From positions 26,033-90,032 of the forward strand of contig JAFXOI010000031.1 in NCBI GenBank assembly GCA_017528825.1: DNA of 64,000 nt, in the 5' to 3' direction. Origin of the DNA: Elusimicrobiaceae bacterium (GTDB lineage: Bacteria; Elusimicrobiota; Elusimicrobia; Elusimicrobiales; Elusimicrobiaceae). The notes under the pieces were generated by a model, which was not told where the DNA came from, ran no database searches, and saw only the letters and a list, made by a program, of their open reading frames with translations. Both the position numbers and the translations under genes were made by a program. Shown in pieces: positions 19,632-53,271 of the stretch (position 1 is the first letter of the stretch; each line of letters begins with the position of its first letter).

Positions 19632-22600
19632 ATGACAAAACATTTTTGGAAAACTTTGTGTAGCAAGGCGGCCATTGCGGCAGTCTTGCCGTTGTTGTTT
19701 GTGGTAGTGCCGCAATGTGTGCACGCCCAATCGGCCGAAATTCGTTCTGCCGGTGTATATTATATTGACGGCCTAAGTGACATCAACAGTGTATATTGTA
19801 ACTGGGGTGCCGACAATATTTCCAATGCCGGGCAAGCGGCGTACAAGAGCGGTATCGTGGATGTGGCGGCTCATCAAACTGCTGATCCGTGGGATACCTC
19901 GGCCCTTATTGAGTATGATCAACCTTATCCGGCTCCCAATCAGCCCAACAATTATCCCAACCATTGTTTGGCGTTATGCTTTGATGTGTATTGTACCAAT
20001 AAACCCAACGGCGCTACAACTTACTCTATTTCTTTCCCGTTGCAAACCATTCAATTTGAAATTGCCAAATACAATAATTCCAAAGATATCGGTTCTTCCG
20101 AAACTAACCCGGCTGTGCGCACCATTATGGAAAGTATTATTGACAATAATATTTTGGTGGGTGGCGCTACGGGGCCTATGCCCGATACGGATTTATCTAA
20201 GTACATGTGTGCCGCCTATTCGTGCGTAGGTTCTGCAGCCACCTTTGGTGCGACTCAAAGTTGTCCTAACCCTCAATACGAATGTATTGAAAAGTCTGCT
20301 CTTTCTTCTAGCGATATGGGGCCGAACTGTCAAAATCCTCCTTCGGACATTATTAAAAAAGTTACTCATTGCTGTCGTTCATTAAATACGACTGCTTCTA
20401 CCTATGACTATCCTGCGATAACTACTAGGGACGCACAAGATAGTTTTGTCCCCGGGAAAAAAGAAACCGGTGGAGTAGAATATATAGAATGTGGAAATAG
20501 TGTATTGGGTTGTAAAGATGATGGAAGCGGTTGTATTAATGGCCGCGAGACTCCTTGTATTCAACGTTCCATGGGTACCGGTAAAGGATACAATGACCCA
20601 ATCCGCTTCTGCACATCTTGGGACGGTTCATATGAAATTTTAGGCGAATTTGGAAAAACCAACGGGCAATTTGGTTTCCGCGCCAATGTGAAAACCAATT
20701 ATCCCGGTGATAACATCGCTGTAGAAGAAATCGCCATTGACGATACCTTCATTTACCCCAGCGATAACCAATATCCTATTCAGGTAGACGTGACCAACGT
20801 GCACACCGTACGCAGTACGGCTACGGTGGTGGGTTCTATTACGTCTGTCATGGCTACACCTTACACGGTAACCTACCGCCTCAGTAAAGATGCGGATGTC
20901 AGTATCCAGGTATTTGATGCTTCTCATGCGGTGCCGTATACGCAGTCTGACTGGAATCCCAGCGCTACCATGGTAGATGCTATTTCTTACAATGATTCCA
21001 CCAACATCCTGCTTACTCAGCCCGTGCGCCACTTAGTGGATTGGCAGCCGCGCTTAGGCGAAGGGATGAAAGGCTCTGATAAAGACGTGATTTTGCAAGA
21101 GTCCGAAAGCTGGGACGGTCGCGATGACTCCGGCCGCTTATTGCCTGCCAATAACTATTTGATTTCTATCCAAGCCAAGACCCAAGACGAATGGCCGGGC
21201 ACGGATTTCTCCCGTGCGGTTACCCGCCAGCTCAGCTTGGATCCGTTAAAACTAACCGATATTGTGGTGCAAGGGCTCAACAAACAGTCTACCGCCTACG
21301 CCCGTGTCAATTATGTTCCGACGGAAGCATCCACGGTGTACTTTGAAGTATATACGCCGGGCACCACCTTTGCCAGTGAATATACGCGCGGCTTTGAACC
21401 GACCGGTTCTCGCCCGGTAATTGCGAATGGTACCGGTTCCTTGGTCTATTCCAATCACCAACAGCGCAATCGCGGGCTGAGCTACCCCGATAAATGGGAT
21501 GGTTTGTGCCATGTGGCAACCGGTTGTGACTTGGCTTATCCGCGCGGAAAGAAACTACCCTTTACCGGAGACGTGTGGAATGGCACAGCAACTCTCTGTA
21601 CGGACCCGATTTCCGCAGGCGGAAACGCAGGTACAGTATCCGGTCAGAATTGTGTGATCACTTCCCAAGAAGGCGCACCGATGCCGGATGGAGACTATGT
21701 ATATGTACTCTGGGCAGAAGTGCCGTACACGGATCACTATTTTAACGCAGCGGCCTGTTATGGACCGGGTACCCCGCAGTCTGCCGGATGTACCGGAACG
21801 ATTAACTGCAGCGGTAACAACGGTGCCTATACTTGTACTACCACCGTACGCGGAACCACTAATACCTGTTCTACAGCCGGTACCGCGGGTAGCAATGCTG
21901 CAGCTTGTACCGGTGCCTTTACCGGTGTAAAGACCCAACGTTACTATACCGGACACTTGCCTATTGAACGCGGTGTGGTAGATATTACTATTCAACCCGT
22001 TAGCTACGCCACTATCGGTTCCAGCCCGACGGCGTATGGCTTAGATCCGTTTATCTTTAAGTACTCTATTGCCCGTGAAGCTACCGTGAATGCGTATGTC
22101 AAAAATACGGCCGGTGTAAAGGTGAAAACCCTTACCAACGAAGGCGGTAACACCAATGTGGCCCAACAGATGAACACATTAACTTGGGACGGACGCGATG
22201 ATAATGGGCGTATGGTCAGTGCCGGCACCTATATGTTTGTGGTGGAAACCTCGGACCCCATGTTCCCGCAAAGTGTCAAAACCCAAGCGGCTTCTATCTT
22301 CCCGGTGGACTTGTATAGAGTTACGAATGTCTCTACAACGGATGTCTATGGAGACAGCGCGGCTAAAGCAACCATAAGTTATATGCTTTCTAAGGCCATG
22401 AATGTACAGATCAACATATATAATAAGGATGTAGTGGTACCTGTACAAAACACGACAGCCGGTGCACAACAGATTACGCAGGAAACAACCACGGCCAATG
22501 TGCTGGGGTTGCCTGAACTGCCGGGCTTGACCAGTACGGCGGTTCCTGCTACGGTTATCGGCGCAACTTTAGTGGCAGGGGACAGCGTAGGCTCTACCTA

Positions 22601-24608
22601 CTATGTATATACGACCCCGGTGGTAACAGGTAGTACCTATTATTATTACCGTGCTTTGAAATATGTTTCCGCAGTTACTGCCACTACTGAAAACTATGAA
22701 GTTCAGGAAGTGGTGCGCGTGGACGGGACTACTGCCCCGTGGCCGCCGCGCGTCTGCGACAGACAAACCGATGCGGCTTACTTTACAGGCGGATATGTAG
22801 ATCCGACCAAGTTCCCGCAGTGTATTTATGTCAATGACACCAACTTTACCAATTATCCGGCTAACCCCAAAGCAGCCGAGTATAACTATACCGAAGGCGC
22901 CCGCCAAACCTTGGATGTGCGCTTACAGCCGGTAAAAACTTTCAACCGCTCTGCCTTGAAGGCCGGAGACGGCGTAGTGAATATGGAAGAATGGGATGCT
23001 CAATACTTCTATAACCCGACGCCGGTATCTGTGGCCGATGGCGGCAAAAATACATTAGCTGCGGTACAAGCGTGTAAAAATCAAACCGATATTACCAAAT
23101 GTCCGTATGAAATGATTCCGGACGGTACTTATCCGTTGTATATTGCGGCTCGTACCCAAGAGCCGGTGGACGTCTATTACAACCAAACAACAGCCATTCC
23201 GTTCCGCACCGCGGCTGAGGTACTCCCGCAAACCGGTCTGTATGCTACAGATAAACCGGTATACCGGATTAATATCTCTCGTGGGCCGGTGTACTTTATT
23301 GACGGCACGGTGGCGGTGTATCCCAATGCTCCGCAGTTGTACAACGTGTCTTCCGGTCCTATTTTCGTGCCGCCGTATGAGATTAACTTCTCTATTTCCC
23401 GTGCGGCTACGGTGGAAGTAGCTGTGGTGGCCTTGCAAGACGGTTTGTGCACCACCACACGCGATACAGGGTCCTCTTACTCGCGCTTGCCCTACAACAA
23501 TAAGGCAGGGGATGTGTGTAAATTCTTAAGCACCATGACTATTCCCAATACCGCTAACTTTGACCCAAACATTGTTCGTAAGCTGTATTGGGACGGTACC
23601 GATAATAACGGCAAGTATGTCAAGAACGGTAACTATGAAATCCGCTTGACGGCCAAAAACTATCCGGATGAAGGATTGTATCAGCCCACGGTCAAACAGC
23701 TGACCTTGAACGTAGATTTGCTCAAGGTGTATGACTTGCCGGAATCGGAAGCCTACTCTATTAATAAGCGTGGTATAGACATGAAAGTGTCTTACCAGAT
23801 TTCCGTGCCGATGAAAGTGGCCATCCAGATCTTTAAGCCGGGTACCACCATTTACGACTATACAAAAGGTACCTTGCGTGACCCGTCCACCGGACAGGAA
23901 GTAACCGATATCCGCGATGTGCTGGTCAGATCCATTGTGGGTATCCGCCCATCTACCACCTTGATTGAAGAGGTGTGGGATGGTACGGACTATGCCCAAC
24001 AGGGTGTGCCGGACGGTACCTATCCGTTACGCTTTGTAACGGCGTTGAATGGCGCAGATATTGACTCTGTTACCGGAGAAGTGTTGGCCGGTAGCGATGC
24101 GGCCGGTTCCACCGATTATAAGATAAATTACGTGGCTGATACGTATCAGTACGTGAACTTGCATCATGCTACAGTGGCTATCGGTGACGGGGAGTTCGTC
24201 TGCGAAGACTGGGAGAAAACGGTATTCTTCTATCCCAACCCGTTCAAAACAGCCACCGGTACATTAGAAATTACTAAGTTACCAGTGCCCGGTAAAATGT
24301 CTATTAAGATGTATAACTTGGCCGGTGACTTGGTGCGCGAAGGCGGATACACTTGTGTGGATGCTCAAAATATGTCTGTGACAATGGGTAGCTCTCTACA
24401 AGTCAGTCCGGATAATAATGTCAGCAGTACCACTTATACGGGTGGTATGCCGTCCCTGCGTAATGCGGCCCTGCGCTGCTTCTGGGACAAAACCAACGAC
24501 CATGGTAAACGTGTGGCCCGCGGGGTATACTTCGGACTAGTGGATTTCCGTGCTCAAAACGGCAGACAACACTGCCAAAAGGTAGTGAAGATTTTAATTC
24601 CGAGATAA
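19632..24608 (+). CDS. 1658-aa secreted protein with repeated FlgD-like Ig modules, Cys-rich inserts and T9SS-type-A-like C-terminal domain
   Basis: Signal peptide ending AQS. Repeated WDG motifs (e.g. WDGRDDSGRLLPANNY, WDGRDDNGRMVSAGTY, WDGTDNNGKYVKNGNY). C-terminus FYPNPF...MYNLAGDLVR...ARGVYFGLV...KVVKILIPR. Confidence 0.75.
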   Translation: MTKHFWKTLCSKAAIAAVLPLLFVVVPQCVHAQSAEIRSAGVYYIDGLSDINSVYCNWGADNISNAGQAAYKSGIVDVAAHQTADPWDTSALIEYDQPYPAPNQPNNYPNHCLALCFDVYCTNKPNGATTYSISFPLQTIQFEIAKYNNSKDIGSSETNPAVRTIMESIIDNNILVGGATGPMPDTDLSKYMCAAYSCVGSAATFGATQSCPNPQYECIEKSALSSSDMGPNCQNPPSDIIKKVTHCCRSLNTTASTYDYPAITTRDAQDSFVPGKKETGGVEYIECGNSVLGCKDDGSGCINGRETPCIQRSMGTGKGYNDPIRFCTSWDGSYEILGEFGKTNGQFGFRANVKTNYPGDNIAVEEIAIDDTFIYPSDNQYPIQVDVTNVHTVRSTATVVGSITSVMATPYTVTYRLSKDADVSIQVFDASHAVPYTQSDWNPSATMVDAISYNDSTNILLTQPVRHLVDWQPRLGEGMKGSDKDVILQESESWDGRDDSGRLLPANNYLISIQAKTQDEWPGTDFSRAVTRQLSLDPLKLTDIVVQGLNKQSTAYARVNYVPTEASTVYFEVYTPGTTFASEYTRGFEPTGSRPVIANGTGSLVYSNHQQRNRGLSYPDKWDGLCHVATGCDLAYPRGKKLPFTGDVWNGTATLCTDPISAGGNAGTVSGQNCVITSQEGAPMPDGDYVYVLWAEVPYTDHYFNAAACYGPGTPQSAGCTGTINCSGNNGAYTCTTTVRGTTNTCSTAGTAGSNAAACTGAFTGVKTQRYYTGHLPIERGVVDITIQPVSYATIGSSPTAYGLDPFIFKYSIAREATVNAYVKNTAGVKVKTLTNEGGNTNVAQQMNTLTWDGRDDNGRMVSAGTYMFVVETSDPMFPQSVKTQAASIFPVDLYRVTNVSTTDVYGDSAAKATISYMLSKAMNVQINIYNKDVVVPVQNTTAGAQQITQETTTANVLGLPELPGLTSTAVPATVIGATLVAGDSVGSTYYVYTTPVVTGSTYYYYRALKYVSAVTATTENYEVQEVVRVDGTTAPWPPRVCDRQTDAAYFTGGYVDPTKFPQCIYVNDTNFTNYPANPKAAEYNYTEGARQTLDVRLQPVKTFNRSALKAGDGVVNMEEWDAQYFYNPTPVSVADGGKNTLAAVQACKNQTDITKCPYEMIPDGTYPLYIAARTQEPVDVYYNQTTAIPFRTAAEVLPQTGLYATDKPVYRINISRGPVYFIDGTVAVYPNAPQLYNVSSGPIFVPPYEINFSISRAATVEVAVVALQDGLCTTTRDTGSSYSRLPYNNKAGDVCKFLSTMTIPNTANFDPNIVRKLYWDGTDNNGKYVKNGNYEIRLTAKNYPDEGLYQPTVKQLTLNVDLLKVYDLPESEAYSINKRGIDMKVSYQISVPMKVAIQIFKPGTTIYDYTKGTLRDPSTGQEVTDIRDVLVRSIVGIRPSTTLIEEVWDGTDYAQQGVPDGTYPLRFVTALNGADIDSVTGEVLAGSDAAGSTDYKINYVADTYQYVNLHHATVAIGDGEFVCEDWEKTVFFYPNPFKTATGTLEITKLPVPGKMSIKMYNLAGDLVREGGYTCVDAQNMSVTMGSSLQVSPDNNVSSTTYTGGMPSLRNAALRCFWDKTNDHGKRVARGVYFGLVDFRAQNGRQHCQKVVKILIPR

Positions 24609-24627: not shown

Positions 24628-25590
24628 ATGAAAAATAAAGTTTTAATTGCTTGTTTTGCTCTCGCCTTGGCAGCTCCGGCTGCTTGGGCTGACTCGTATG
24701 CAGATGCCGGTACTAGTGCTAGCGCATTCTTGAAGATTGATGCGGGATCTCCGCGTGCGCAAGCCTTAGGTAACGCGTATGTGTCTATTGCAGAAGGACC
24801 GGAGGCCTTGTTTTGGAACCCGGCCGGTGCCGCTTCCGCTACCACGCGGGAGTTAGCTTTTGCTTATCAAGATTATTTGCAAGGTTATAAGGCACGCACC
24901 TTAGCGTATTTGCAACCTATGGGCAAAACGATTATCGGTGTAACATTCAACTACATGGATATGGACGGCTTTGATTACCGCGATGAATACGGTTATCAAC
25001 AACCTACTGTAGGTAAACCGGTACAGAACTTTGTGGGTAGTTTGTCATTGGCCCGCGGATTTTTCAACCAAGGATTACAACTGGGCGCTACCGCTAAGTA
25101 CATCAATGAAAAATTGGATACCTACCGCTACACCAACGTCGGTTTTGATGTGGGGGCTAAAGGGCGTCCGTGGCATTGGTTAGGTTTAGGTGGTGCCATT
25201 ATTAACATCGGTGACAAAAAAGAAATGCCGCGCGGTTGGCGTGTGGGTGCCGATATTGATACGAAGTATTGGACCATTTCCGGTGAATATATGAAATACC
25301 GCGACGATCAGGGCCGCTACGGGGTTGGTTTAGAAGTACATATTCCGGAAGATTTATTGCAAGTGGCTCGGTTTGATTTGCGCGTAGGTTATTACGATCG
25401 TGAAAGCACCGGTTACAGCGAAAGCAAAAATTTGAAGAGTTTAGGACTTGATAGTACCTCTAAAGTTTCCTTCGGGTTTGGTATTTATAGCTCTGAATTA
25501 TTTGGCTATGGTGCCAGCATTGATTACGCAGTTACCCCGTTTGGGGCTTTAGGTACTTCGCAACAAATTGCGGTATCGGTGCAATTTTAG
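24628..25590 (+). CDS. PorV/PorQ-family (FadL-like) outer-membrane beta-barrel
   Basis: Signal peptide, AFLKIDAGSPRAQALGNAY and ALFWNPAG plug motif, alternating beta-strands, terminal Phe (AVSVQF). Confidence 0.8.
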   Translation: MKNKVLIACFALALAAPAAWADSYADAGTSASAFLKIDAGSPRAQALGNAYVSIAEGPEALFWNPAGAASATTRELAFAYQDYLQGYKARTLAYLQPMGKTIIGVTFNYMDMDGFDYRDEYGYQQPTVGKPVQNFVGSLSLARGFFNQGLQLGATAKYINEKLDTYRYTNVGFDVGAKGRPWHWLGLGGAIINIGDKKEMPRGWRVGADIDTKYWTISGEYMKYRDDQGRYGVGLEVHIPEDLLQVARFDLRVGYYDRESTGYSESKNLKSLGLDSTSKVSFGFGIYSSELFGYGASIDYAVTPFGALGTSQQIAVSVQF

Positions 25591-25639: not shown

Positions 25640-25834
25640 ATGAATACGATGCACAAAGTAAAAAGCCTGGTCGTAAACAAAAAAGGGCAAACGGCTGTGG
25701 AATATATTATTACAGCTTTTTCGCTTTTTGGGGCTTTCTTAGCGTTTTATGCTTTGTATTCTAATATGGTTCCGCAACAGTTCGACCAAGGAGCCAAAGT
25801 CATTTTGTCAGTATATGACACAAGTAGTAATTAA
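25640..25834 (+). CDS. Flp/TadE-like pilin
   Basis: KKG|QTAVEY followed by a hydrophobic helix. ATG 25640 follows ggaagg; ORF track starts at 25607. Confidence 0.8.
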   Translation: MNTMHKVKSLVVNKKGQTAVEYIITAFSLFGAFLAFYALYSNMVPQQFDQGAKVILSVYDTSSN

Positions 25835-25857: not shown

Positions 25858-26079
25858 ATGAAGTTTATTATCGCCATGCAAAATAAGTTGAATGCTGCCA
25901 AAGCGGCTGCCATCAACAGCTTAAAAAAACAAGAAGGCCAGAACACCATCGAATACATCATTATGTTAGGTGTAGTAGTAGGTATTGCCCTGCTCGTTGG
26001 TACGTTGGTTAAAAACATGATGCCGGAAGTCTTTGAGAACATCAAAGCCAAAATTTTGGGCGGCGTCAACCAAGACTAG
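25858..26079 (+). CDS. flp: Flp (type IVc) pilin, probable major subunit
   Basis: KKQEG|QNTIEYIIMLGVVVGIALLVG, short mature part (about 46 aa), strong SD agggagg. Confidence 0.88.
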   Translation: MKFIIAMQNKLNAAKAAAINSLKKQEGQNTIEYIIMLGVVVGIALLVGTLVKNMMPEVFENIKAKILGGVNQD

Positions 26080-26096: not shown

Positions 26097-26585
26097 ATGA
26101 CAATTTTTCATAGGAGGCATGAGGGGCAGGTAACGGTAGAATTGATGCTCATTCTGCCGGTGCTAATGTTGATGATATTCTTTATCCTAGAATATGGCAA
26201 CATTGCCTATCATACCATTATTGCTAACCATGCTTCCTATGAATTTGCCCGAATCGGCGCTTTAACAGGGGCTAAAAAGCCTAGCGGTAAAGCCAGTACC
26301 GGGCCGATGGTAACAAAGATTAACGCGGCCAAGCAAAAGGTGTTTGGCGCGGATGCATCCCGCATTTCGGTGAAAGTTAAATTGCAAAACACCGGTGTGG
26401 ACCCGATGTATAAAAAACATCGGCATGAAGATGTAATCGTAACGGTGGTATATCCGGTGCGGTTAGCGTTTCCGGGGACTAGTTGGTTACTCGCCAGCGA
26501 GCCGAAACGCAACGGTGTACGCAAAATAGAAGCTACTACGCGTATGCCGGTAGAAAAATTATATGCCGGCTCGGATCCTAAGTGA
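26097..26585 (+). CDS. tadE: TadE/TadF-like pseudopilin
   Basis: HEG|QVTVELMLILPVLMLMIFFILEYG, ASYEFARIGA, V.VTV.YPV. Confidence 0.85.
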   Translation: MTIFHRRHEGQVTVELMLILPVLMLMIFFILEYGNIAYHTIIANHASYEFARIGALTGAKKPSGKASTGPMVTKINAAKQKVFGADASRISVKVKLQNTGVDPMYKKHRHEDVIVTVVYPVRLAFPGTSWLLASEPKRNGVRKIEATTRMPVEKLYAGSDPK

Positions 26586-26644: not shown

Positions 26645-27397
26645 ATGAAAAAAGGAATTATGCTTCCGTTGCTGTTAGCATTCTTAGCAGCTTTGGTTTA
26701 TTGGATGATTGTACACAATGCTGAAAAAAAATTGAATGCTTCTAAGACAGTCAAAACTGTTTTGGTGCCTGTGCGCGATATTAAAGAGCGCGAAGTAATT
26801 AAGCGTGACTACTTGAAACGCATTCAAGTGCCTGCTGCCTATGTGCAAAAAGACGCTTTTACTTATACAACCGATGCAGATTTTGCCAAAATAGACAATG
26901 CCATTGCACGGATTCAAATCCCGAAAGGAAACCAGATTTCCAAATATGCCGTTACCTCGCTTTCTCCCGAGGCCGGTTTGTCCAGTAAAATTCCGGTTCA
27001 GATGAGAGGTTTTGTCATGGTGGTCGATAGCAACGTAGCTAGCATGATTAAACCCGACGATAACGTGGACATCTTGCTCACGTTTGAGGCCCTGATGAAA
27101 ACAGGGGCTCGGCAGAAAGTAACCGTAACGCTACTTCAGAACGTAAAAGTGTTAGGTGTAGGTTCTGACTTGGGACAAGGATTGGATGCCAAAGCGGCCG
27201 CCGCCTTGCGTAACCAAGAGGAAGACGCTTCCGCGTATACAGATACGAGCGCGTTGAGCTTGGCTCTGTCTCCGCGTGATGCACAATACTTAGCCTTGGC
27301 TAAGGAAGAAGGAACGTTATCCGTCATCTTACGTTCTCACGGAGATGTGACGAACTACTTGATGGAAATTGCCACCTTTGAGAAATTATTTTCATAA
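26645..27397 (+). CDS. cpaB: Flp pilus assembly protein CpaB/RcpC
   Basis: N-terminal TM, SAF domain (VLVPVRDIKERE), IKPDDNVDIL, LLQNVKVLGVG, LALSPRDAQYLALA. Confidence 0.9.
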   Translation: MKKGIMLPLLLAFLAALVYWMIVHNAEKKLNASKTVKTVLVPVRDIKEREVIKRDYLKRIQVPAAYVQKDAFTYTTDADFAKIDNAIARIQIPKGNQISKYAVTSLSPEAGLSSKIPVQMRGFVMVVDSNVASMIKPDDNVDILLTFEALMKTGARQKVTVTLLQNVKVLGVGSDLGQGLDAKAAAALRNQEEDASAYTDTSALSLALSPRDAQYLALAKEEGTLSVILRSHGDVTNYLMEIATFEKLFS

Positions 27398-35488: not shown

Positions 35489-35523
35489 TAAAAAAAGGGG
35501 CTTATCCCTTGGGAGAATATACA

Positions 35524-39836: not shown

Positions 39837-39868
39837 GCTAGGTGAATTTTGAACGGGAGCAAAATAAT

Positions 39869-42452: not shown

Positions 42453-42481
42453 TTGACAAACCGAAAAAATCAGTTTATACT
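42453..42481 (+). promoter_or_regulatory. Consensus sigma70 promoter of the cargo-array unit
   Basis: TTGACA 42453-58, 17 nt, TATACT 42476-81. Confidence 0.8.
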
Positions 42482-42578
42482 ATAGTAGAAATAGATGTAT
42501 CAGTAAACTCTGTGTTTGAGCGCGGGACATCCCCGCGGGTCAGCAAGAGTGAATTTTTATATTATGGCGAGGTGGAAT

Positions 42579-44244: not shown

Positions 44245-45681
44245 ATGAAAATCATAAATTGGATTAAAAATCGCAGCGGTAAATTCGCTCTTTCTACAGC
44301 GCAAGCTATAGGGACGGCCGCAGTGGTAGGCGTGGCAGGTATCGCCGCGTGGCAAATGTTGTCTTCTTCGGGTCCTAATCAGGATACGGCATTTTCCTCT
44401 CAAGACCCGGACGTAGTCTATGTGGCCGGCGGGGCCGGTGGCTCCTACAGCGGCGTTGGATATGGCGAAGGCGGAGAATTGCAAAGCCATATTAATGTAT
44501 CCAAATCCTCCAGCCAACGGCTCATGGAAAGAGATTTTGAACAGGAAAAATTGCGTGGACAAAACCCATCTTCCAGCCAAATGGAGCGGGATGAACAAGC
44601 CATTTCTGCCCATAAAATGAACGGGGCTAGCGAAGGCTTAGGCGTGGGTGTCGGCGCACAAGAAATGGGTAGCGGCACAATGGAAGGCGGAAACAGCCAA
44701 GTGCAAGATCAAATTGCCGCTATTAGTGCCCTGGCTAACCAAAAGAAAGAAGAAGCTGAAGCGGCAGCTGCAGCGGCCGGTGCGGAAGGCGGAGATGTAG
44801 TAGCGGCAGCCGCTAAAGCAGCCGGTTTGAATAAAAGCGGTGGCAAATATGACATGGCTTCCGGCATAGCCCGTAGCGGTAACAGTTATAGCACGAACGC
44901 TTTTGGCGGTTCCACCAGAATAGCCGAAAAAGGCGGGCGCATTAGCCCTAGCGCTGAAACCGATCGTTTAGCTATGGGAAGATCCGGCCAAATGCAAGGT
45001 CCCAATAATGCCAATTTTGGCGGTTATCATGGTAAAGTAGGCAATGACTTGGGCTCTATGGCCAAATATGCCTCTGATGCAAGAAGCAAAAAAATGGCCG
45101 TGAACCAAATGGCTTCTGATCTATATATGTCCGGTGCACAACAAAGCGGCGGTATTAAAGTAGCCAACGATGGCAGTCTAGGATTAGGCGGTGGTGAATC
45201 ATTGGATCTTTTGGACGATGCCGTGCGTGCGCTGGGTATTACAGGCGAAGGTATAGGTGGGGAAACTTATGGACAGGCAAAGCAACGATTGCTTGACGGT
45301 ATATATGACTTACGTACAAAACTAGCGGGTTTAGCTTCTATTCCGTTGATTGGGCCGCTTTTTGCACTCATTCCCTATTTAAATTATCTGAAACAGGTAA
45401 AAGAGTTTAAAGAGAGTTGGGGGGCTAGTGTGATGGAAACTGAAAATACGCAAGGCTCTTTGGCAGATCATCTCAAAAACTGTGCTGACCAAATGTATGG
45501 GTTATCGTGGATGAGTACTGCAATGAGTGTGTTTGGTGTAGTGGGGTTTGTAGCTGGTTTGGAAGGGTCTGTAGTCGGCGTAATAGGTAGTTACAATGCA
45601 TACGCAGCTCAATATTGGCCCGAAGCTGCCGAAGAAGAGGGAGAGGAGAATCCGGATCCGACCAAAGAGAAGAATAAATAA
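44245..45681 (+). CDS. Gly/Ala/Ser-rich protein with prepilin-like leader and hydrophobic C-terminus (array protein B)
   Basis: MKIINWIKNRSG + hydrophobic segment. C-terminal LAGLASIPLIGPLFALIPYL and MSTAMSVFGVVGFVAGL. SD aaggag. Confidence 0.75.
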   Translation: MKIINWIKNRSGKFALSTAQAIGTAAVVGVAGIAAWQMLSSSGPNQDTAFSSQDPDVVYVAGGAGGSYSGVGYGEGGELQSHINVSKSSSQRLMERDFEQEKLRGQNPSSSQMERDEQAISAHKMNGASEGLGVGVGAQEMGSGTMEGGNSQVQDQIAAISALANQKKEEAEAAAAAAGAEGGDVVAAAAKAAGLNKSGGKYDMASGIARSGNSYSTNAFGGSTRIAEKGGRISPSAETDRLAMGRSGQMQGPNNANFGGYHGKVGNDLGSMAKYASDARSKKMAVNQMASDLYMSGAQQSGGIKVANDGSLGLGGGESLDLLDDAVRALGITGEGIGGETYGQAKQRLLDGIYDLRTKLAGLASIPLIGPLFALIPYLNYLKQVKEFKESWGASVMETENTQGSLADHLKNCADQMYGLSWMSTAMSVFGVVGFVAGLEGSVVGVIGSYNAYAAQYWPEAAEEEGEENPDPTKEKNK

Positions 45682-45691: not shown

Positions 45692-47299
45692 ATGAATATA
45701 CTAAAACTACTAAAAAATTGTACAGGTGCTATACGGCCGGCGGGGATTGCCGCGTTGTGTATGACGGGTACAATGGCGTTTATTGGTATTTCCAATTATA
45801 TGTCATCTTCTCCGGCTGCTCAAGAAAAAAAGGTACGTGCTATGGCAGATCTGATGCGTGAGAATCCGTCGGCTGTTCCGAGTATGAATTTTGCCTTTGA
45901 CAAGAATCAATTCGCTTCTGCGGAAGAAAAAGCCAGAATGGAAGGCCAAATGGCTGATAAAGTGTTTGGCGCTGGGGATCAAGCTGCTGAAGCAATAGAA
46001 GGATTGAATTTAGCGTCTAACGGTGCAATCGAAGGTATTGGCAATATTCAAGGTTCTGCCTTGGGAGCTGGAGAGGACAGCTTTGGCTTAAATACGGATA
46101 AGGGTGCCGAAAGTACCGGCGGTAGTGTCCGTGGGGCTGCCCAAAGAGGCAGTACGGACGGCATGGATGAAGCCGTTGCGGGCCAAGCGAAAAAAGAAGT
46201 CAAACAATTGCAGAAAGCATCTGTCAACACTAAAGGCGGCAGTAATTTAGGTAGCGGGACAGGTTCTCTCAGCGGTGCAAATAGCTCCGCAGCAGGACGT
46301 TCCGTAGGCCAAGAAAGAGCGAGCCGCATTAATCCCAGTGCTCGGGGTGCAGGGTCTATTACCGGGGCGATGGGTGACGGTACTACGGGACTGATTGCCA
46401 GCGGTGCCCAATATCGCGGCATGCACAGTACCTCCTATAAAGGCAATAACCGGTTCTCTTCTTCTCACAGCGGACAACAAATGGGAAAAGAACTAAACAG
46501 TTTGAAACAAATTGCACAAGATTCTGCTAAGATTGCCGATTCAATAGGCAAATCTGCTAACGAGGGAAGCCGTGCATTTTGGGGCAATAAATCTTTATCG
46601 GCAGTGATGGATGTAGATGGTTATCAGACAGGAGTAGGTGGTGGTGAGCTGCCGAGTGCTGAATTCCATAAGCAGCCATCTATTGATAATCTCGATACGG
46701 AAATGGATAAGCAGAAGAAGTTGGAAGCCGAACGGGAGGAGGCTCGTAGAAACCTAAAAACTCAGCTTATCTCTCTGCTTTTTGCCGCCCTGGGAGCCGC
46801 GATAGGTATTGCTGCTCTTAAAAAACTGGGTCCGTGGGGAATAGCAGGTGCTGCGATTCTCTTAGCTGGAATATGTGCATGGTCTATTGCTTTTATCGTA
46901 CAGGCCGGCAGATATATGAGCAAGTTCGGTTCTGACGGAATTAGTATTGCAAGTATCGTAGTGGGTGTCTTGTGTATAGCGGCAGTTGTTATCGCTTTTG
47001 CGGTCGGTGATTTCGGATCGCAAGCGAGCGCAGCCGAGGGAGAATCGTCAGCAGCTCTTGGAGAATCTGCTGCAGAAGCCGGCGCGGAAGCCGGTGCAGA
47101 AGCCGGTGCCGCGGCAGCTGGAGAAGCCGGTGCCACTGCGGCTAGTGGAGCAAGTGCTGGAACAAGCGCAATGGCGGCATTGGGAGGAGGAACTTCTGTA
47201 CTTATGGGTGGAAAAGAAGCTGTTGAGGGTATTATCAACTCAGCGGATCCCAATTTAGCTACTGGTGACGGTTCGGGTTCAGGTGGCGGTAAAAAATAA
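45692..47299 (+). CDS. Gly/Ala/Ser-rich protein with prepilin-like leader, coiled coil and three hydrophobic helices (array protein C)
   Basis: ATG 45692 after aggagg. MNILKLLKNCTG + hydrophobic segment, KQKKLEAEREEARR, then three long apolar helices. Confidence 0.75.
   Translation: MNILKLLKNCTGAIRPAGIAALCMTGTMAFIGISNYMSSSPAAQEKKVRAMADLMRENPSAVPSMNFAFDKNQFASAEEKARMEGQMADKVFGAGDQAAEAIEGLNLASNGAIEGIGNIQGSALGAGEDSFGLNTDKGAESTGGSVRGAAQRGSTDGMDEAVAGQAKKEVKQLQKASVNTKGGSNLGSGTGSLSGANSSAAGRSVGQERASRINPSARGAGSITGAMGDGTTGLIASGAQYRGMHSTSYKGNNRFSSSHSGQQMGKELNSLKQIAQDSAKIADSIGKSANEGSRAFWGNKSLSAVMDVDGYQTGVGGGELPSAEFHKQPSIDNLDTEMDKQKKLEAEREEARRNLKTQLISLLFAALGAAIGIAALKKLGPWGIAGAAILLAGICAWSIAFIVQAGRYMSKFGSDGISIASIVVGVLCIAAVVIAFAVGDFGSQASAAEGESSAALGESAAEAGAEAGAEAGAAAAGEAGATAASGASAGTSAMAALGGGTSVLMGGKEAVEGIINSADPNLATGDGSGSGGGKK
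47072..47131 (+). repeat. 12-bp in-frame tandem repeat (AEAG)
   Basis: gcagaagccggc / gcggaagccggt / gcagaagccggt, plus ggagaagccggt at 47120. Confidence 0.75.
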
Positions 47300-47311: not shown

Positions 47312-47623
47312 ATGGCAAAAATAGATATGGTATTGAAAAAGGTGTTTAATGTAACGGTGTTGGTGTGTCTTTTCATAACAGGATTGTTGTTATCAGTGTA
47401 TTTTGCATACCAACAACGGCAGGCGGAGCGGGAGCTGATTTATCTCAAGGCGCGGGAACTGGTTAAGCAAGAACAACAGGACCGCTTACGAGATTATCAA
47501 AAACGCTTACAACAGCGCCGTCTGACCCAAGAGTATAACAAAGGCCGCGTGGTAAATATGAACCAACCAACCCAACCGGCCCAATCGGCTGCCCCGGCAG
47601 ATACGGCAGCAGCCCAGAAATAG
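47312..47623 (+). CDS. Small TM + coiled-coil protein
   Basis: 103 aa, one TM, then a Gln/Arg-rich helix. Confidence 0.7.
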   Translation: MAKIDMVLKKVFNVTVLVCLFITGLLLSVYFAYQQRQAERELIYLKARELVKQEQQDRLRDYQKRLQQRRLTQEYNKGRVVNMNQPTQPAQSAAPADTAAAQK

Positions 47624-47632
47624 GAGTTTAGC

Positions 47633-49096
47633 ATGAAACAGGAAAAGACAAGTTCTTCGTCGGTTGTACCGTCGCTTAACCCTGCTCAGGGACAGCACCG
47701 TCCGGCCGCGATGAACCCATACAAAAAGTGGGGAATAATCGGGGGACTTGTTTTTTTCCTGTTTTTGATTATATTTGTAATACCGGCAGGTAGTTGGCCG
47801 GGATTGCGTAAGGTAGTTAGCACGTTGGAAGAGGCGCCGCAAGCCCAGTCTTGGAGTGTAGGTCGTATCCTATGGACGTGGGCCCGCGCAGGGTTTCCGT
47901 TTCAATCGCAAGAAGCCCAGCAGTTATCGCTCTTTGACAGAAAGCAGTCAGTTGCGCAGACAACCGGAACTAAATCGGGACTGATTGATTTGGCCGCGGT
48001 GAATGTTTCTCGGCGCGCGCGCGGGTTGCGCGCGGATGGGATAGCAGGCGCGTACGAAGCAGAAGAAGGCGACGATAGAGCCGCTCTCTCCCGCCCTGTC
48101 GGGGACTGGAGTGACGAAGCAAAAGCGTCGGCCGAAAAATCCGCCAAAGCGGTGGATGTCTACTTGGGTACGGATGCAGATTTGCTGGCACGGGCGGATT
48201 CTTCCGCCGGTCAGGGTTCGGCCGATACGGCACAGATGCGTGCTCGTTCGGTTGTTGCCGGTACGGTAAGTTCCGATATGCTGGCCAGTGTGGCTGATAG
48301 CATGTCCGCTTCCACGGACGCGGCGTTGAGGCGAGCTTTGGCCGCTGCCGCCACAGCCTCTGCCAATACTAGTATCCGTAGCGGTACGGATTTGAGCCAA
48401 AAAGCCCAACAGGATTTAGCGCAAGTATTCGTGCTCACTAACATCGCCGAAAAAGCGCCGGAAGGGTTTAAGAACCAATTGGTTACCGCCGGATACATGG
48501 CGGGCACTGTATCTGCAGAAGCCTATGAAGCGGTCAGCGCGCCCAGTGTGTCTTTGCGCGGGGCAGAAAAGGTGGCTCCTTCAGCACAGACCGGAAAGAC
48601 CGAGGAACAATGCCAGCAACAGGCCAAGCAGACCAATGAGCAATTGGCCCCGGTGCTAGAGCGTTCCCGTGAGCTCATCCGCCACATTCGTCAGGGGGTA
48701 CCGCAAGGGTGCGGGGCGGAACTGAGTAACTGGAAAAGCAGTTTGATTCAAGTGCGTGAGCAATGCCAAACGGTCAAAAAACTATTTTTATCTATGAGAG
48801 ATGCCTGCGGCATGAACGTACCTAAGGAGGGCAGTTGCGAAACGGTTTATTTGGATGCGTATGCGGGCGAGTTGTCTGAGAAATGTGAAGCTCTGTCAAC
48901 GGCAAAAGCGCAAGTGCCGGTAGATAAGAGCCAAGTATCAGAGCTAACCGCGCAAATTAATACACTGGCGCAGACGTTTGATCAGATGCAGCTGGATAAT
49001 TCGTTTAACTTGCGGGTAGACGGTGTGTTAGGGACGAATGACTTTTTCCCACAGACCGATAACACCCAATGGTTGACGCAAGAAAAAGCCCAATAG
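47633..49096 (+). CDS. Ala-rich single-TM protein with six-Cys helical C-domain (array protein E)
   Basis: TM WGIIGGLVFFLFLIIFVIP. Cys in EEQC, PQGC, REQC, RDAC, EGSC, SEKC. SD aggag. Confidence 0.72.
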   Translation: MKQEKTSSSSVVPSLNPAQGQHRPAAMNPYKKWGIIGGLVFFLFLIIFVIPAGSWPGLRKVVSTLEEAPQAQSWSVGRILWTWARAGFPFQSQEAQQLSLFDRKQSVAQTTGTKSGLIDLAAVNVSRRARGLRADGIAGAYEAEEGDDRAALSRPVGDWSDEAKASAEKSAKAVDVYLGTDADLLARADSSAGQGSADTAQMRARSVVAGTVSSDMLASVADSMSASTDAALRRALAAAATASANTSIRSGTDLSQKAQQDLAQVFVLTNIAEKAPEGFKNQLVTAGYMAGTVSAEAYEAVSAPSVSLRGAEKVAPSAQTGKTEEQCQQQAKQTNEQLAPVLERSRELIRHIRQGVPQGCGAELSNWKSSLIQVREQCQTVKKLFLSMRDACGMNVPKEGSCETVYLDAYAGELSEKCEALSTAKAQVPVDKSQVSELTAQINTLAQTFDQMQLDNSFNLRVDGVLGTNDFFPQTDNTQWLTQEKAQ

Positions 49097-49126
49097 GCCT
49101 ATTTTGAAAAAGGGCCCAAAAAGTGG

Positions 49127-49263: not shown

Positions 49264-52200
49264 ATGGCTGAAAATAAGAAGGATTCTTTCACCTTTAGCG
49301 ATAAGATTAAAAACAGCAAGCCTGCAGTTAATCCGTTCGCTAAGAAAGGTGCTTCTAAAATCGGCAATAATGGCAAGCCCAAACAGACCTTGTTTGAACG
49401 GTCTCGTCGTGATGCGCCCTTTATGGTAGCGGCGGCGGCGGCTTTGCTGATGTTGCCCTTTTTGTACAAATACAGCGGTAACGTCAATGATGACGTCATT
49501 GTACCGCCAGGGTCAGAAGATTCTATTTTTGATCCGGAACGCTTTGGGTTCTCTCCCAGCAACGAAGATCCCACCGGCCAGATTGCACAATTGGCGGGTC
49601 GTGATCCGCTGAGCCTGATTAAAGGCTGGGGCAACCCGGAAGAAGAGCAAGAAGCGGCAGAACCGGAATACGAATCCAGAGATGCGTTTGACCGGGATTA
49701 TACTCCGGCTCCGCGTCCGGATACGCCCAACTATCGGCAGACTGCTCCGGTAGCCACCCGTGCGGCTTTCCAAAGAACACCTACCAAGATTAAAGACTTG
49801 AGCGGTGCTTCTTTGAACTTGCGCGGTGGCGGCGGTGTGGGCAGCCGTTTTGGTGGTGCTCAATTAAAAGCTGCTGCCAGACAAAGCTCTGCCAGCGCTC
49901 CGAGAAGAGGAGCTCAAGCTCGCTCTTTAACTCCGTTGCGTTCAGCGGCTAATCCGTCTCGTTCTTACTTTGGTCAAGGCGGTGCGGCACAAGCTCGTGC
50001 ATCTCGTGATGCGTTGAGTAAAGCTAACGCAGCAGAAGCCTTACGCGACGCTATGTTTGCCCCGGTGAAAAACGAACGTGTGGGCGGACTGGCCGATGGT
50101 TTCTTTGCTTCGGGCGGTGGTCCGGGCAAAATTGACCGCAACATGAACTTCAAAGGTATGGAGCCGTGGTGGTGGGACATGATGAAACAACAAGAAATGG
50201 AGAGATGGAAATGGAACTATTTCTTGTGGAGAAAAGGCTTAGTAGAGCCGCTCATCGCCGCGTTAGCTCAAGTATTGGCTAAAATCGGTACGAACCTTAC
50301 TTGCTGTATCGTAATGGGTAACTCCGATTGTGATGCAGATACTTTTGTCGGTTCCAATGGAACGGGTAGTAAAGCTCCTGAATGTTGCGGAGTCAACGAA
50401 GAAAGATTCCGTGCTCAATTCCCCGCAATTTCTGCACTGTATCCAGACGATTTTAAAGCCGCTTGTGATGCTGCACGTAAAGGTGATAAAGGGAAACAAG
50501 ATTGTCCTAGCGGTTGGAAAGCCGGTCATAATTATGGCACCAAGATGAACGGTTTCCAAACCCGTTGGAAATGTTTGGGTGGTGTTGTGCATGGCTCTGG
50601 AGCTACGGAACTGCGTGACCGCTATAACTGCGAAGCTATCAATACTACGCAGAACTTTGAATTACAAGCCACCGGTCAAGCAGCTAAATGGAAAAACCAT
50701 TACCACGTGGTGGTAGTAGATAATTATGTGCCGTTCCCGGTAGGAGATGATAAATCTCACTATCTGTGCACCAGCATGGAAATGCCGGGTGCCAACTCAC
50801 AGAATCGTATCGCTCTGCAAAACGTGAATGGCCATTCCGAAGATCACAATGCCGGAAGACATACCAGTAGCGGACAAAAATATACGTATAAGGATAAAGA
50901 CGGCAAAACCGTTGATGCTCATACTACTGACATCGTGCGCGACAACATCAACGATGGTTGTGTAATCTATGTGGCCAAAGGCGATAATTTCAGATGGCCG
51001 ACGTTCAAATCTGAAACGATTGGACTGTTAAATGAAATGATTCCCGAAGACGCGGGTATTTCCGGTGAGGAAGCCTTTGCCCAATTGCGTTTACGTTTCA
51101 TTGAAGGCTATGCCATGAAACAAACCTTGGCAAGAAAATGGGAAAAAGCTAAAGGAAAACGTGTTCGCTCTAAGAGTGGCGGTACGCATCGCACGAATGT
51201 ATACAAAAAAGTCAGCGATGGTATGATTGACCAGTCCATCCTGCCTGTATCGTATGCGGACTTTGAAAGTTTCTACGTCTTGCACCGCAGCAGCGCTAAA
51301 CCGAGCGAGTCTCAAGCTCCTTATAGTGATCAGAAAAAACGCAAGTTTGCTGATACATATCAAGGAGTGGACAACTCTACTCGTACGTCTTTAGCAGATG
51401 ACGGTAAAGCAACTGCTATTCGCTCTGAGCAATGTGAGTTCAATAGCTTCCGTATTACGGCTAGAGAAATTGAGTATGTGGAGAAAGAGGGAACCGGAGA
51501 AAGCCAGTTGAGCATTGCTGCCAACCTGACCTTTGATCCGTTGCGCTATCCTAAACGGGAAGATTTGGTGGTGACGTTGACCATCAAAGGCGCTGACGGC
51601 AAGACCGTCATTGATAACCACACGCTCACGGATGCGGAGAAACTCACTTGGCAAGATGGTAATAGTTTTATTAAGTTAGAAAATGAGAAACCGGTGCGTG
51701 ATTATTTCAAAAATATTCCGGCCGGAGAGAAGAGATCTATCACGGCTTACTGGACGGCTACCGATCCTAAGACAAAGAAAGAGTCTAAAGATCAGACGTC
51801 GTATGGTTCTGAAAAGCCGATGATCCCGATAAAAACGAAGTCGCCTTGCGAGGAAGGACAGACTCTTTGGGAAGGCGAAGTGGACAAGGATGGTTGTCCC
51901 TTGTACAAAAAATGCGTTGATAACAAGTGGAGTACGGAGAAAGCAAAAGATCCGAACTGCCCTAATAACATCAAGAAATGTACTCCGGGAGACACTAAAA
52001 CCATTCCGAGTGCTGTTGAAGGGTGTGATGCGACCATCACCTGTGACGAACATGGTGAATGGGGCGGTAGCGTGACCGTGGACCCCGAATGTCTATCCAA
52101 CAAGATCAAAAACAAAATCAAAGGTGGGGCTAAGCAGTCATGTACGGAAGATGTGACCGTTACCAGCGGAGAATGTGTGTATGTGATTCCCTGCGAAAAT

Positions 52201-53271
52201 GGTCAATATAATCCCGAAGCGGCCAACTTGACAAATCCGGAATGTTTGAATAGCTTTAGCTCAGACATTGGTTTGTACTCTTTAGCAGGGCACATCATGG
52301 AAGTGCCTACAGTGTTGGAGAATCATGCTAAGAGTGCAGATGCAGGCTTTACTTTTGCCCCTGCACAAGGACCTATGTACTATACTCAGCAGCCTAAGCA
52401 TGATCAGGATGCCACCGCACTGAGCGGTAGAGCGGTTGACAACAGAAGCTCTGATAGCGCCAGAGAGTTTGTCAATGAGGTGTTATCAGAAGTGAATGAT
52501 CGGTTGAAATCGCAGAAAGCGGGATACGCCTTCGTGACATTGAAAGCAGGTGAGGCTCCTAGAATTCCGCAGTTTGTGGATGCTATGCTCCTTGCGAAGA
52601 ACACACTAGGTCGAACGAGTGTTCCCAAAGCTGCTGTGTGTACGATGGCTCGCGGGGTTGGGTTGTCTTCTTACGATCCGGTCAAAGTCAAACAGGATCT
52701 AAGCAATGAATTCGGCTCTTTCGCTATCTACACCGGTCTGTCTTCTGCCTATGTGCCGCGCCAAGATGTTGAAGAAATAGTGGACGGCGTAAAACAGACC
52801 AGAACTAACCAGCGGTTTGACACAGCACCTTATCAGGCCAATAGTTATATGAAGAGAGGGCTTCAAGGTATAACTAAGAGTGGTGTCCAAAGCCCTGTTC
52901 CTGATGATAAGGGTATAGAAGGCGCGATGGTGAATGGAAGATTCCCCTTAGCGGCATTACTGGAGGACGTGCAGTTTAGTAATGACTTAAAGAATCCCTT
53001 GAAAGGCCATTGGTGGGATGATATGTCTAAACCAGAAGTTTCTCAGAAAGTATATGATGAATATGATAACAAGATCGGAAGCATATTATTCCATGATACT
53101 GGCCGATGTAATTTATACGGAAGCCAAGAAATGAGTATTCAAGATGCCTTGAATTATATCGGCAAAGTGCTTGAGTTAGGCTTGGATTATAAACCGCTCT
53201 CCAAGAAGGACTCGAAGCCTGGAAAGACAAAAGTGCATAGTACTACTGGGCACGGAGGCAAGAACGGTTAA
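49264..53271 (+). CDS. 1335-aa single-TM protein with Gly-rich linker, Trp-rich helix and Cys-rich repeats (array protein F)
   Basis: TM PFMVAAAAALLMLPFLY, PWWWDMMK...WKWNYFLW, three C-x-C-x-C-x-PxC repeats at 51847-52245. SD aaggag. Confidence 0.78.
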   Translation: MAENKKDSFTFSDKIKNSKPAVNPFAKKGASKIGNNGKPKQTLFERSRRDAPFMVAAAAALLMLPFLYKYSGNVNDDVIVPPGSEDSIFDPERFGFSPSNEDPTGQIAQLAGRDPLSLIKGWGNPEEEQEAAEPEYESRDAFDRDYTPAPRPDTPNYRQTAPVATRAAFQRTPTKIKDLSGASLNLRGGGGVGSRFGGAQLKAAARQSSASAPRRGAQARSLTPLRSAANPSRSYFGQGGAAQARASRDALSKANAAEALRDAMFAPVKNERVGGLADGFFASGGGPGKIDRNMNFKGMEPWWWDMMKQQEMERWKWNYFLWRKGLVEPLIAALAQVLAKIGTNLTCCIVMGNSDCDADTFVGSNGTGSKAPECCGVNEERFRAQFPAISALYPDDFKAACDAARKGDKGKQDCPSGWKAGHNYGTKMNGFQTRWKCLGGVVHGSGATELRDRYNCEAINTTQNFELQATGQAAKWKNHYHVVVVDNYVPFPVGDDKSHYLCTSMEMPGANSQNRIALQNVNGHSEDHNAGRHTSSGQKYTYKDKDGKTVDAHTTDIVRDNINDGCVIYVAKGDNFRWPTFKSETIGLLNEMIPEDAGISGEEAFAQLRLRFIEGYAMKQTLARKWEKAKGKRVRSKSGGTHRTNVYKKVSDGMIDQSILPVSYADFESFYVLHRSSAKPSESQAPYSDQKKRKFADTYQGVDNSTRTSLADDGKATAIRSEQCEFNSFRITAREIEYVEKEGTGESQLSIAANLTFDPLRYPKREDLVVTLTIKGADGKTVIDNHTLTDAEKLTWQDGNSFIKLENEKPVRDYFKNIPAGEKRSITAYWTATDPKTKKESKDQTSYGSEKPMIPIKTKSPCEEGQTLWEGEVDKDGCPLYKKCVDNKWSTEKAKDPNCPNNIKKCTPGDTKTIPSAVEGCDATITCDEHGEWGGSVTVDPECLSNKIKNKIKGGAKQSCTEDVTVTSGECVYVIPCENGQYNPEAANLTNPECLNSFSSDIGLYSLAGHIMEVPTVLENHAKSADAGFTFAPAQGPMYYTQQPKHDQDATALSGRAVDNRSSDSAREFVNEVLSEVNDRLKSQKAGYAFVTLKAGEAPRIPQFVDAMLLAKNTLGRTSVPKAAVCTMARGVGLSSYDPVKVKQDLSNEFGSFAIYTGLSSAYVPRQDVEEIVDGVKQTRTNQRFDTAPYQANSYMKRGLQGITKSGVQSPVPDDKGIEGAMVNGRFPLAALLEDVQFSNDLKNPLKGHWWDDMSKPEVSQKVYDEYDNKIGSILFHDTGRCNLYGSQEMSIQDALNYIGKVLELGLDYKPLSKKDSKPGKTKVHSTTGHGGKNG

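Follow-up and report, generated by a model that had tools for sequence, protein, structure and literature searches.

A Tad/Flp pilus cluster of Elusimicrobiota headed by genes for a giant protein with a type IX-like C-terminal domain and a PorV/PorQ-family barrel

We analyzed a 64,000-nucleotide (64-kb) stretch of DNA from an Elusimicrobiaceae bacterium of the gut (assembly GCA_017528825.1, contig JAFXOI010000031.1, positions 26,033 to 90,032 of the forward strand), here called the window. At 19632-53271 of the window lies a locus in which a Tad/Flp pilus cluster is headed by two genes, one for a giant exported protein with a type IX secretion system (T9SS)-type C-terminal domain (CTD) and one for an outer-membrane barrel of the PorV/PorQ family. 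The nearest named relatives of the source organism are Candidatus Avelusimicrobium species. The locus holds 26 open reading frames (ORFs), all on the + strand, as are all the features described below, and positions are those of the window unless another locus is named. The locus ORFs were scanned with Pfam and NCBIfam, and flanking ORFs of at least 150 amino acids (aa) in the window were also scanned with Pfam. A sequence-only reading had described a block of about 34 kb of co-oriented genes, and the gene content that it listed is confirmed: a giant gene, a PorV-like barrel, Flp (two copies), TadE, CpaB, secretin, CpaE-CpaF, TadB, TadC and tetratricopeptide repeat (TPR) genes identified by Pfam, NCBIfam and direct motif reading, a phosphorelay, a second pilin group and a strong terminator at the end. 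Because all large ORFs of the window except one are on the + strand, co-orientation is uninformative as evidence for a single system; GC skew is also positive nearly throughout, and we dropped this argument.

The first gene (19632-24608) encodes a protein of 1658 aa with a signal-peptide-like N-terminus. Its first 330 residues are rich in cysteine, and about five FlgD-immunoglobulin-like (Ig-like) repeats follow the FlgD_ig model (E-value, E, 5.6e-20), with WDG motifs at residues 494, 622, 852, 1320 and 1449. The CTD covers approximately residues 1527-1658. It shows the motifs YPNP, GVYFGLV and KVVKILI, which are hallmarks of T9SS type-A CTDs and align across orthologues, and it is diverged, carrying a Cys-containing insertion. 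It matches a model of the PorZ C-terminus (E 1e-7), and its AlphaFold2 (AF2) model is a beta-sandwich with PorU (6ZA2) as the top fold match in the PDB (E 1.6e-4). CTDs of the family match Por_Secre_tail and CHU_C, and these matches are above threshold in three distant loci of our comparison (loci are given L or P numbers): L093 and L095 (31 bits each) and L090 (CHU_C, 27.3 bits). PDB sequence searches with the giant protein and with the CTD profile gave no match, and a CTD homologue search yielded only 20 fragments, all from orthologues. What the sequence-only reading called a giant CTD-bearing protein stands as to gene, size and T9SS-type motifs, whereas the family models for the CTD stay under threshold on the window's own protein.

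The barrel gene (24628-25590) starts 19 nucleotides (nt) after the giant gene and encodes 320 aa with a signal peptide. The protein scores 83.7 bits against NF033709, the PorV/PorQ family model (cut-off 90, E 1.8e-23), and matches PorQ with E 3.6e-18; the PorQ and PorV equivalog models are far under their cut-offs. A profile of the barrel family matches the PorV chain of the SprA-PorV structure (6H3I_F) with E 1.9e-13. Homology to PorV is clear from this profile, and the protein is not assignable to PorV or to PorQ specifically. The family is large, with 4670 representative clusters at E <= 0.001 in an exhaustive search, and metagenome contigs from ruminant and other guts carry identical copies of this protein.

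The Tad/Flp cluster follows at once. It opens with two Flp-type pilins: the first (25640-25834), called as a 64-aa gene on an identical contig, has the cleavage motif G/QTAVEY, read directly, and the second (25858-26079) has G/QNTIEY, with Flp1_like and Class_IIIsignal matches below threshold. Next come the TadE pseudopilin TadE1 (26097-26585; PF07811, 45.7 bits, cut-off 22.9) and CpaB/RcpC (26645-27397; TIGR03177, 112 bits, cut-off 71). The secretin (27416-28150; PF00263, E 2.3e-41) is minimal: its 244 aa comprise the core only, without N0-N3, and among PDB entries it matches the Tad secretin RcpA best (8ODN, residues 210-370, E 1.1e-22). A 764-aa protein (28156-30450) fuses a ParA-like CpaE/TadZ part (CbiA at residues 16-227, 31.1 bits, cut-off 25.4) to a CpaF/TadA ATPase (T2SSE at 386-665, E 2.7e-62). 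The platform proteins are TadB (30455-32080; 541 aa), which matches T2SSF in its C-terminal half only (E 3e-16) and is extended at its N-terminus by a periplasmic part of about 250 aa, and TadC (32083-32967; T2SSF, E 2.4e-15). The TadB extension (30455-31250) is conserved and has a signal-like start and no family match. An exported TPR protein (32978-34363; TPR_2 and TPR_1), kept in all related loci, occupies the position of TadD.

By membership, the locus is a Tad system, save for a prepilin peptidase: no A24-type enzyme (TadV/CpaA) was found by Pfam in the locus ORFs or in the flanking ORFs of at least 150 aa in the window, and the gene for it may lie in another part of the genome. With the tad locus of Aggregatibacter, cpa of Caulobacter and rcp/tad of Pseudomonas it shares Flp pilins with the G/XXXXEY motif, TadE-like proteins, CpaB/RcpC, an RcpA-type secretin core, TadZ and TadA functions, a TadB/TadC platform and a TPR protein. 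It differs from them in the giant CTD protein and PorV/PorQ barrel at its head, in the embedded HAMP, DsbA-like, phosphorelay and anchored array genes, and in derived Tad parts, namely a secretin of about 245 aa, the TadZ-TadA fusion and the extended TadB. These derived parts characterize the clade and co-occur with the giant/barrel pair. Secretins of the clade measure 240-284 aa (L004-L006, L088, L090, L094 and L101-L174), compared with 305-784 aa in about 30 tad loci of other phyla, and TadB measures 514-541 aa, compared with 292 aa in L007, where the extension is absent. TadZ-TadA fusions similar to this one also occur in other phyla. Tad systems in Elusimicrobia have been noted computationally before (PMC6668835).

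The order giant-barrel-Flp-TadE-CpaB-secretin-ATPase recurs in all 40 related metagenome loci with room upstream and in eight lineages found by way of the barrel, whose identity goes down to 29%. On the tad side, an ATPase scan of species-representative genomes, saturated by universal CpaF motifs, returned 80 loci. Three of these are named Elusimicrobia or Elusimicrobiales (L004, L005 and L006, with ATPases 86, 57 and 54% identical), to which L007 is added, and the three named loci all show the order giant-barrel-Flp-TadE-CpaB-secretin-ATPase-TadB-TadC. As had been claimed for canonical tad loci, PorV and CTD genes are missing elsewhere: about 76 tad loci from other phyla have no barrel or CTD match within 10 kb. 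Searching metagenomes with a TadB profile added 80 loci (38-79% identity), gut and environmental ones among them; the barrel stands directly before the first Flp gene in 40 of the 40 with room upstream, and a giant gene matching the CTD profile is present in 38 of the 38 with further room. On the barrel side, the nearest family members are 29-39% identical, and those with a source name all belong to Elusimicrobiota. Four of them (P0146, P0150, P0156 and P0313; barrels 29-36% identical) all have the order giant-barrel-Flp-Flp-TadE-CpaB-secretin-CpaEF; the giant proteins range from 1063 to more than 4700 aa, and gene junctions often overlap. Junctions within our locus are likewise tight or overlapping; the coordinates of the giant and barrel genes overlap in L088 and L090, and their frames abut or overlap in many metagenome loci. 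Synteny in related genomes thus strongly supports the linkage of the pair to tad that the sequence-only reading had put forward, and does not show the unlinking that would have refuted it. Because it survives divergence to 29% identity in the barrel and 54% in the ATPase, in 40 of 40 loci and in both gut and environmental samples, this adjacency is hard to explain without selection for co-expression.

Several loci depart from this arrangement in single points. In L090 (13664-17613), from a distant member of the phylum, the order giant-barrel-Flp-TadE-CpaB-secretin-ATPase is kept and DUF3566 and BatD genes replace TadB and TadC after the ATPase. L005 has a second CTD-profile protein two genes upstream of its giant gene (3-1148 and 3070-6285), and its barrel may serve more than one cargo. 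In L007 (677-2096), whose ATPase is 44% identical, a related tad-TPR-HAMP cluster includes several Flp-like genes in tandem; the contig ends 1.6 kb upstream, and this stretch holds no barrel.

Outside the clade, the pair is found on its own. In four of five outgroup contexts the barrel adjoins a large protein, which has a CTD in three (L093, L095 and the L090 type). In L093 and L095 the barrel comes directly after the CTD protein and unrelated genes follow, with no tad nearby; in L092 the barrel precedes a 5243-aa protein with no adjacent tad, and in L091 it stands alone. A neighbor-joining tree, whose deep branches are unsupported, clusters the tad-linked barrels and places the unlinked ones outside. 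Because distant barrels pair with CTD proteins without tad, we conclude that a CTD protein and a PorV/PorQ-like barrel form an autonomous two-gene module that was captured by tad and fixed at the head of the operon in one clade of Elusimicrobiota. The existence of pairs without an adjacent tad cluster weakens, without excluding, the idea that the Tad machine is the obligate exporter of the pair. The L093 pair (2722-8018 and 10263-15401), different from ours, lies in a related genome beside the housekeeping block of GGDEF, solute-binding protein, TsaD and CtpA genes that also flanks our locus, and is followed by cation-efflux genes, not tad.

Downstream of the TPR gene, the locus continues with accessory genes. 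A HAMP protein (34376-35488; HAMP, E 8.7e-5) has two transmembrane segments and no kinase domain, and gut and environmental lineages, as well as L007, keep its gene behind that for the TPR protein. A small protein with three transmembrane segments follows at a conserved position (35509-35796), and then a predicted exported DsbA-like protein of the thioredoxin fold (35808-36764). This last had been called a thiol oxidoreductase, a name that is borne out at most in part. The protein has the monothiol motif FVMSQCPYG and an SPxF loop. Its DsbA matches are faint (profile E 0.025-0.4; Pfam DSBA, E 0.12), no family is matched at standard thresholds, and there is a single active-site cysteine, the second Cys of CxxC being missing. 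A loose pattern search found the motif in 38 of 38 orthologues (CPYG in 33 and CPFG in five), and a C-terminal cysteine is kept in every orthologue examined. The CTD of the giant protein has three invariant cysteines; a link between these and the conserved cysteines of the DsbA-like protein is only a guess. The phosphorelay consists, by Pfam, of a sensor histidine kinase with dCache-HAMP-HisKA-HATPase architecture (36833-38722), a REC-HisKA-HATPase hybrid kinase (38715-39836) and a REC-LuxR (GerE) response regulator (39842-40555) that is 87-89% identical in relatives. The TPR, HAMP, small transmembrane, DsbA-like and kinase genes are kept downstream in gut lineages and in many environmental ones. 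The second pilin group comprises a third Flp-type pilin (40559-40744; motif G/QATIEY; Class_IIIsignal, 25.4 bits, cut-off 23.7), a TadG-like membrane-anchored protein at a conserved position (40741-41865; PF13400, E 0.023, below threshold) and the TadE-like pseudopilin 2, TadE2 (41862-42392; motif G/QATTE; PF07811, E 6.5e-4, 20.2 bits, cut-off 22.9).

The last part of the locus is an array of six genes. Array protein 1 (42564-44216) is N-terminally anchored and rich in G, A and S, with about 320 conserved N-terminal aa and a variable C-terminus. Protein 2 (44245-45681), also G/A/S-rich, has an N-terminal and two C-terminal transmembrane segments, and protein 3 (45692-47299), rich in A, G and S, has a C-terminal cluster of such segments. 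Protein 4 (47312-47623; 103 aa) combines a transmembrane segment with a coiled coil and has a weak FtsL-like match, and protein 5 (47633-49096) is N-terminally anchored with a Cys-containing C-terminal part. Protein 6 (49264-53271; 1335 aa) has a conserved cytoplasmic tail of about 50 aa, a transmembrane segment and a conserved proximal region of about 320 aa; the remainder is a fast-evolving, Cys-rich multidomain ectodomain. All six have one N-terminal transmembrane segment after a cytoplasmic tail and no obvious cleavable signal. The sequence-only reading had described five related, low-complexity, exported and effector-like proteins. We find instead six ORFs that are membrane-anchored, of low complexity only in parts and without detectable kinship: BLASTP among the six gave E > 0.3 throughout, and we rejected their reading as paralogues on this basis. 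Searches of Pfam (including relaxed thresholds), NCBIfam and the PDB gave no family, solved-structure or fold match for them, and the effector label is not supported. The AF2 model of protein 6, with a predicted local distance difference test score (pLDDT) of 64, has no significant fold match in the PDB, where only generic Ig-like sandwiches came up.

That the array belongs with the second pilin set is supported by synteny in the four Elusimicrobiaceae lineages examined, since three other lineages keep the order and the rough gene lengths, with LuxR-Flp3-TadG-like-TadE2, six genes and then TPR-KsgA. Between lineages, array proteins 2-6 are 24-58% identical over partial lengths, compared with 87-89% for LuxR, 71-73% for MatE and 52-64% for KsgA in the same genome pairs. 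In proteins 1 and 6 the N-terminal parts (cytoplasmic tail, anchor and proximal region) are 50-81% conserved and the distal parts about 10-30%. The array proteins are probably best described as fast-evolving anchored proteins of the envelope or surface. In protein 6, the tail, anchor and proximal region (49264-50220) are nearly invariant, next to an ectodomain that is 10-30% conserved; the conserved tail and anchor suggest a conserved partner in the cytoplasm or membrane.

The locus genes are matched by RNA contigs from bovine and sheep gut libraries, and the pilin genes are thus transcribed in ruminant gut samples. The matched genes are those for the giant protein, barrel, Flp1-Flp2-TadE1, secretin, ATPase, DsbA-like protein and array proteins 1, 2, 5 and 6. 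Flp1-Flp2-TadE1 is the most recurrent, and single contigs span the Flp1-Flp2 and the Flp2-TadE1 junctions. These contigs are short and scattered, at a depth of 2-8, and DNA carry-over is possible. Two overlapping sigma-70-like promoter matches (19425-19486; 10/12 each, with an extended -10 TG) lie in the 289-nt gap before the giant gene, and a promoter-like site (42453-42481; 11/12) lies in a 171-nt gap before the array; all are consensus matches only. An intrinsic terminator (53312-53345) closes the block, with a stem at 53312-53337 of 11 pairs, nine of them GC, and then CTTTTTGTGT (T run). An Rfam scan of the window found no riboswitches or other RNAs.

On both sides the locus is flanked by housekeeping genes. 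Upstream they encode CtpA, TsaD, a solute-binding protein and an enzyme with GAF-GGDEF domains, and downstream a TPR protein, KsgA, FTCD, MatE, RF-1 and others. The GAF-GGDEF gene (17825-19342; Pfam GGDEF and GAF_3 on an identical gene) encodes a diguanylate cyclase. It lies outside the block, directly ahead of the giant gene. Such a gene also precedes the giant gene in one close lineage (L004, 259-1755) and two distant ones (L139 and L142), and this recurrence hints at control of the locus by cyclic di-GMP (c-di-GMP); the cyclase gene is not present upstream of the giant gene in L005, L088 and L094. A separate type IV pilin gene (5463-5978; N_methyl motif, ComP_DUS-like) lies far upstream of the tad cluster, and the relatives L085 and L086 carry additional N_methyl pilin genes, along with one for a Tlde1-domain protein, downstream of MatE.

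How the locus relates to known systems is of interest for its interpretation. The Kil system of Myxococcus is a Tad-like apparatus that kills prey in a contact-dependent way. What our locus would have in common with it is a Tad-derived machine proposed to act on other cells. Contact with other cells and their killing find no support in our results, and no toxin-like or lytic domain was found in any locus protein by Pfam and NCBIfam. The locus would not be a T9SS, because the core parts (SprA/Sov, PorK/L/M/N and the PorU sortase) are absent from the window proteins scanned; it would rather carry a T9SS-like anchoring module. In Porphyromonas gingivalis, PorU:PorV and PorZ:PorQ are 1:1 subcomplexes that anchor PorU and PorZ at the surface (PMC5562754). 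Our locus has in common with these that a barrel of the PorV/PorQ family is encoded with a large CTD protein. It differs in its phylum, which is not Bacteroidota, in lacking these core parts in the window, in a barrel score just under the NCBIfam cut-off and in the diverged CTD with its insertion. It also differs from a type II secretion system (T2SS), with no GspC/L/M match in the locus by Pfam or NCBIfam and a secretin that lacks N0-N3, unlike GspD. Also comparable in layout are giant-gene loci of Omnitrophota, in which a very large surface protein is in conserved synteny with a cluster of secretin, GspE/F-type ATPase and platform, rcpC and small class-III-signal-peptide genes, and in which GGDEF/c-di-GMP parts lie nearby (bioRxiv 10.1101/2023.11.21.568195). 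There, however, the giant gene comes after the secretion cluster, the giant proteins greatly exceed ours in size and contain many transmembrane regions, and neither a PorV-like barrel nor a T9SS-type CTD is reported (same source); the Omnitrophota secretins in our comparison are 556-607 aa long. Full-text literature searches turned up no report that ties Tad or Elusimicrobia to PorV/PorQ or to CTD proteins, and a CTD giant with a PorV/PorQ barrel at the head of a Tad cluster is a combination not known to have been described.

We suggest that the locus is most likely a lineage-specific variant of the Tad/Flp cluster, conserved across Elusimicrobiota, to which a two-gene module was added at the front. 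The giant Ig-repeat protein would be exported by the Sec pathway, and the barrel would bind its CTD and hold it at the surface, in analogy to PorV-PorU and PorQ-PorZ in Bacteroidota. The pair would be produced together with an Flp pilus from the remodelled machine (secretin core of about 245 aa, fused TadZ-TadA and the TadB extension of about 250 aa), and pilus and giant protein would form one adhesion organelle. Control may lie with the phosphorelay of the locus, possibly also with c-di-GMP from the upstream GGDEF enzyme. The DsbA-like protein may aid the oxidation of the many cysteines in exported parts. Where the operon continues in gut Elusimicrobiaceae, with a second pilin set and six fast-evolving, inner-membrane-anchored proteins, these are probably accessory or adhesive parts linked to the pilus or the envelope. 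That the barrel binds the CTD, that the giant protein is displayed at the surface, that the organelle is adhesive and what the DsbA-like and array proteins do are points that we infer, whereas the gene identities, the invariant order, the derived secretin, TadB and ATPase and the transcription of the pilins are shown. The adjacency of barrel and CTD genes fits the anchoring logic of PorV and PorQ; therefore, we judge anchoring and a shared adhesion organelle the most likely reading, and we give this claim, that the barrel anchors the giant protein and that the giant works with the pilus, about an even chance of being right.

Several points weigh against it. The window's own CTD is below threshold in both family models (TIGR04183, 21.2 bits, cut-off 23; PF18962, 18.1 bits, cut-off 27, E 0.0033), and its AF2 model reaches a pLDDT of only 60. 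Adhesion is deduced from the Ig-like repeats and from Tad biology. No outer-membrane translocon for the 1658-aa protein was identified in the locus except the secretin. The conserved adjacency can reflect co-regulation only. Coverage by transcripts is not deep enough to establish a single operon, promoter-like sites precede the array, and the array could be followed only within Elusimicrobiaceae.

The matter of the translocon leads to an alternative that combines secretion systems. Here the Flp pseudopilus, T2SS-like, would push the giant protein through the minimal secretin, and the barrel would dock on the secretin and collect the CTD, so that the secretin replaces SprA and the barrel acts as PorV does at the SprA translocon. 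We regard this as possible but doubtful. The locus encodes no outer-membrane channel other than the secretin, and the pair is invariably linked to tad, but the pairs of L093, L095 and L092 have no adjacent tad and are presumably exported another way. The loss of N-domains in the secretin and the periplasmic gain in TadB, seen in this clade only, suggest a remodelled envelope complex; a secretin without N-domains, on the other hand, has no periplasmic vestibule, which T2SS secretins use for cargo loading, and cargo-recruiting parts like GspC/L/M were not found. T9SS core genes are absent from the window, and a survey of 2,484 genomes found them in Bacteroidetes alone (PMC4793230), yet a SprA-like translocon could lie outside the 64 kb scanned. 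A precedent for giant genes next to a conserved T2SS/Tad-like locus is offered by Omnitrophota (bioRxiv 10.1101/2023.11.21.568195). It is equally doubtful, in our view, that a Tad machine with a stripped-down secretin replaces the T9SS translocon and delivers the giant protein to the barrel while the downstream anchored proteins are cargo or specificity factors.

Two further explanations make less of the giant protein or of the machine. The barrel could mainly be a structural partner of the truncated secretin, a pilotin or stabilizer in the manner of RcpB or TadD, to which the giant protein is attached secondarily. Canonical tad loci do encode extra outer-membrane factors next to the secretin (rcpB and tadD), minimal secretin and barrel co-occur throughout the clade, and in L004 the barrel is 75% conserved and the giant protein 50%. 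However, the barrel gene always adjoins the CTD gene, not the secretin gene, the outgroup barrels pair with CTD proteins with no secretin nearby, and L007 has a secretin of 283 aa and no barrel in the upstream sequence available (1.6 kb). We consider this explanation quite improbable. Alternatively, the genes could be neighbors without a shared function, the pair being an independent surface module fixed upstream of tad and the array separate and unrelated. The autonomy of the pair elsewhere would agree with this, as would the promoter-like sites before the array, the array sequences, which give no functional hint, and the orientation, which says little where nearly all window genes are co-oriented. 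Against it stands an adjacency of overlapping or near-abutting genes that is kept, as described above, across the full divergence of barrel and ATPase, in gut and environmental loci alike, and we consider it rather unlikely.

The anchoring reading, which we favor, has consequences for how these systems are viewed. Tad pili are viewed as adhesion machines complete in themselves, and PorV/PorQ barrels and CTD signals as distinguishing marks of the T9SS of Bacteroidota. Here the two come together in a gene order that does not vary across a phylum in which no T9SS is known. The CTD-barrel pair would thus be a portable surface-anchoring module that exists outside the T9SS, and its combination with a Tad cluster may offer a new means to display or export proteins of very large size. 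Export of the giant protein by the Tad machine, should it prove true, would amount to a new route of secretion. A remodelled Tad envelope complex, to which the minimal secretin and the extended TadB point, would be a subject for structural biology. For the organisms themselves, the locus would provide a genetic handle on how the little-studied Elusimicrobiota of the gut and of groundwater attach to hosts, to particles or to other cells.

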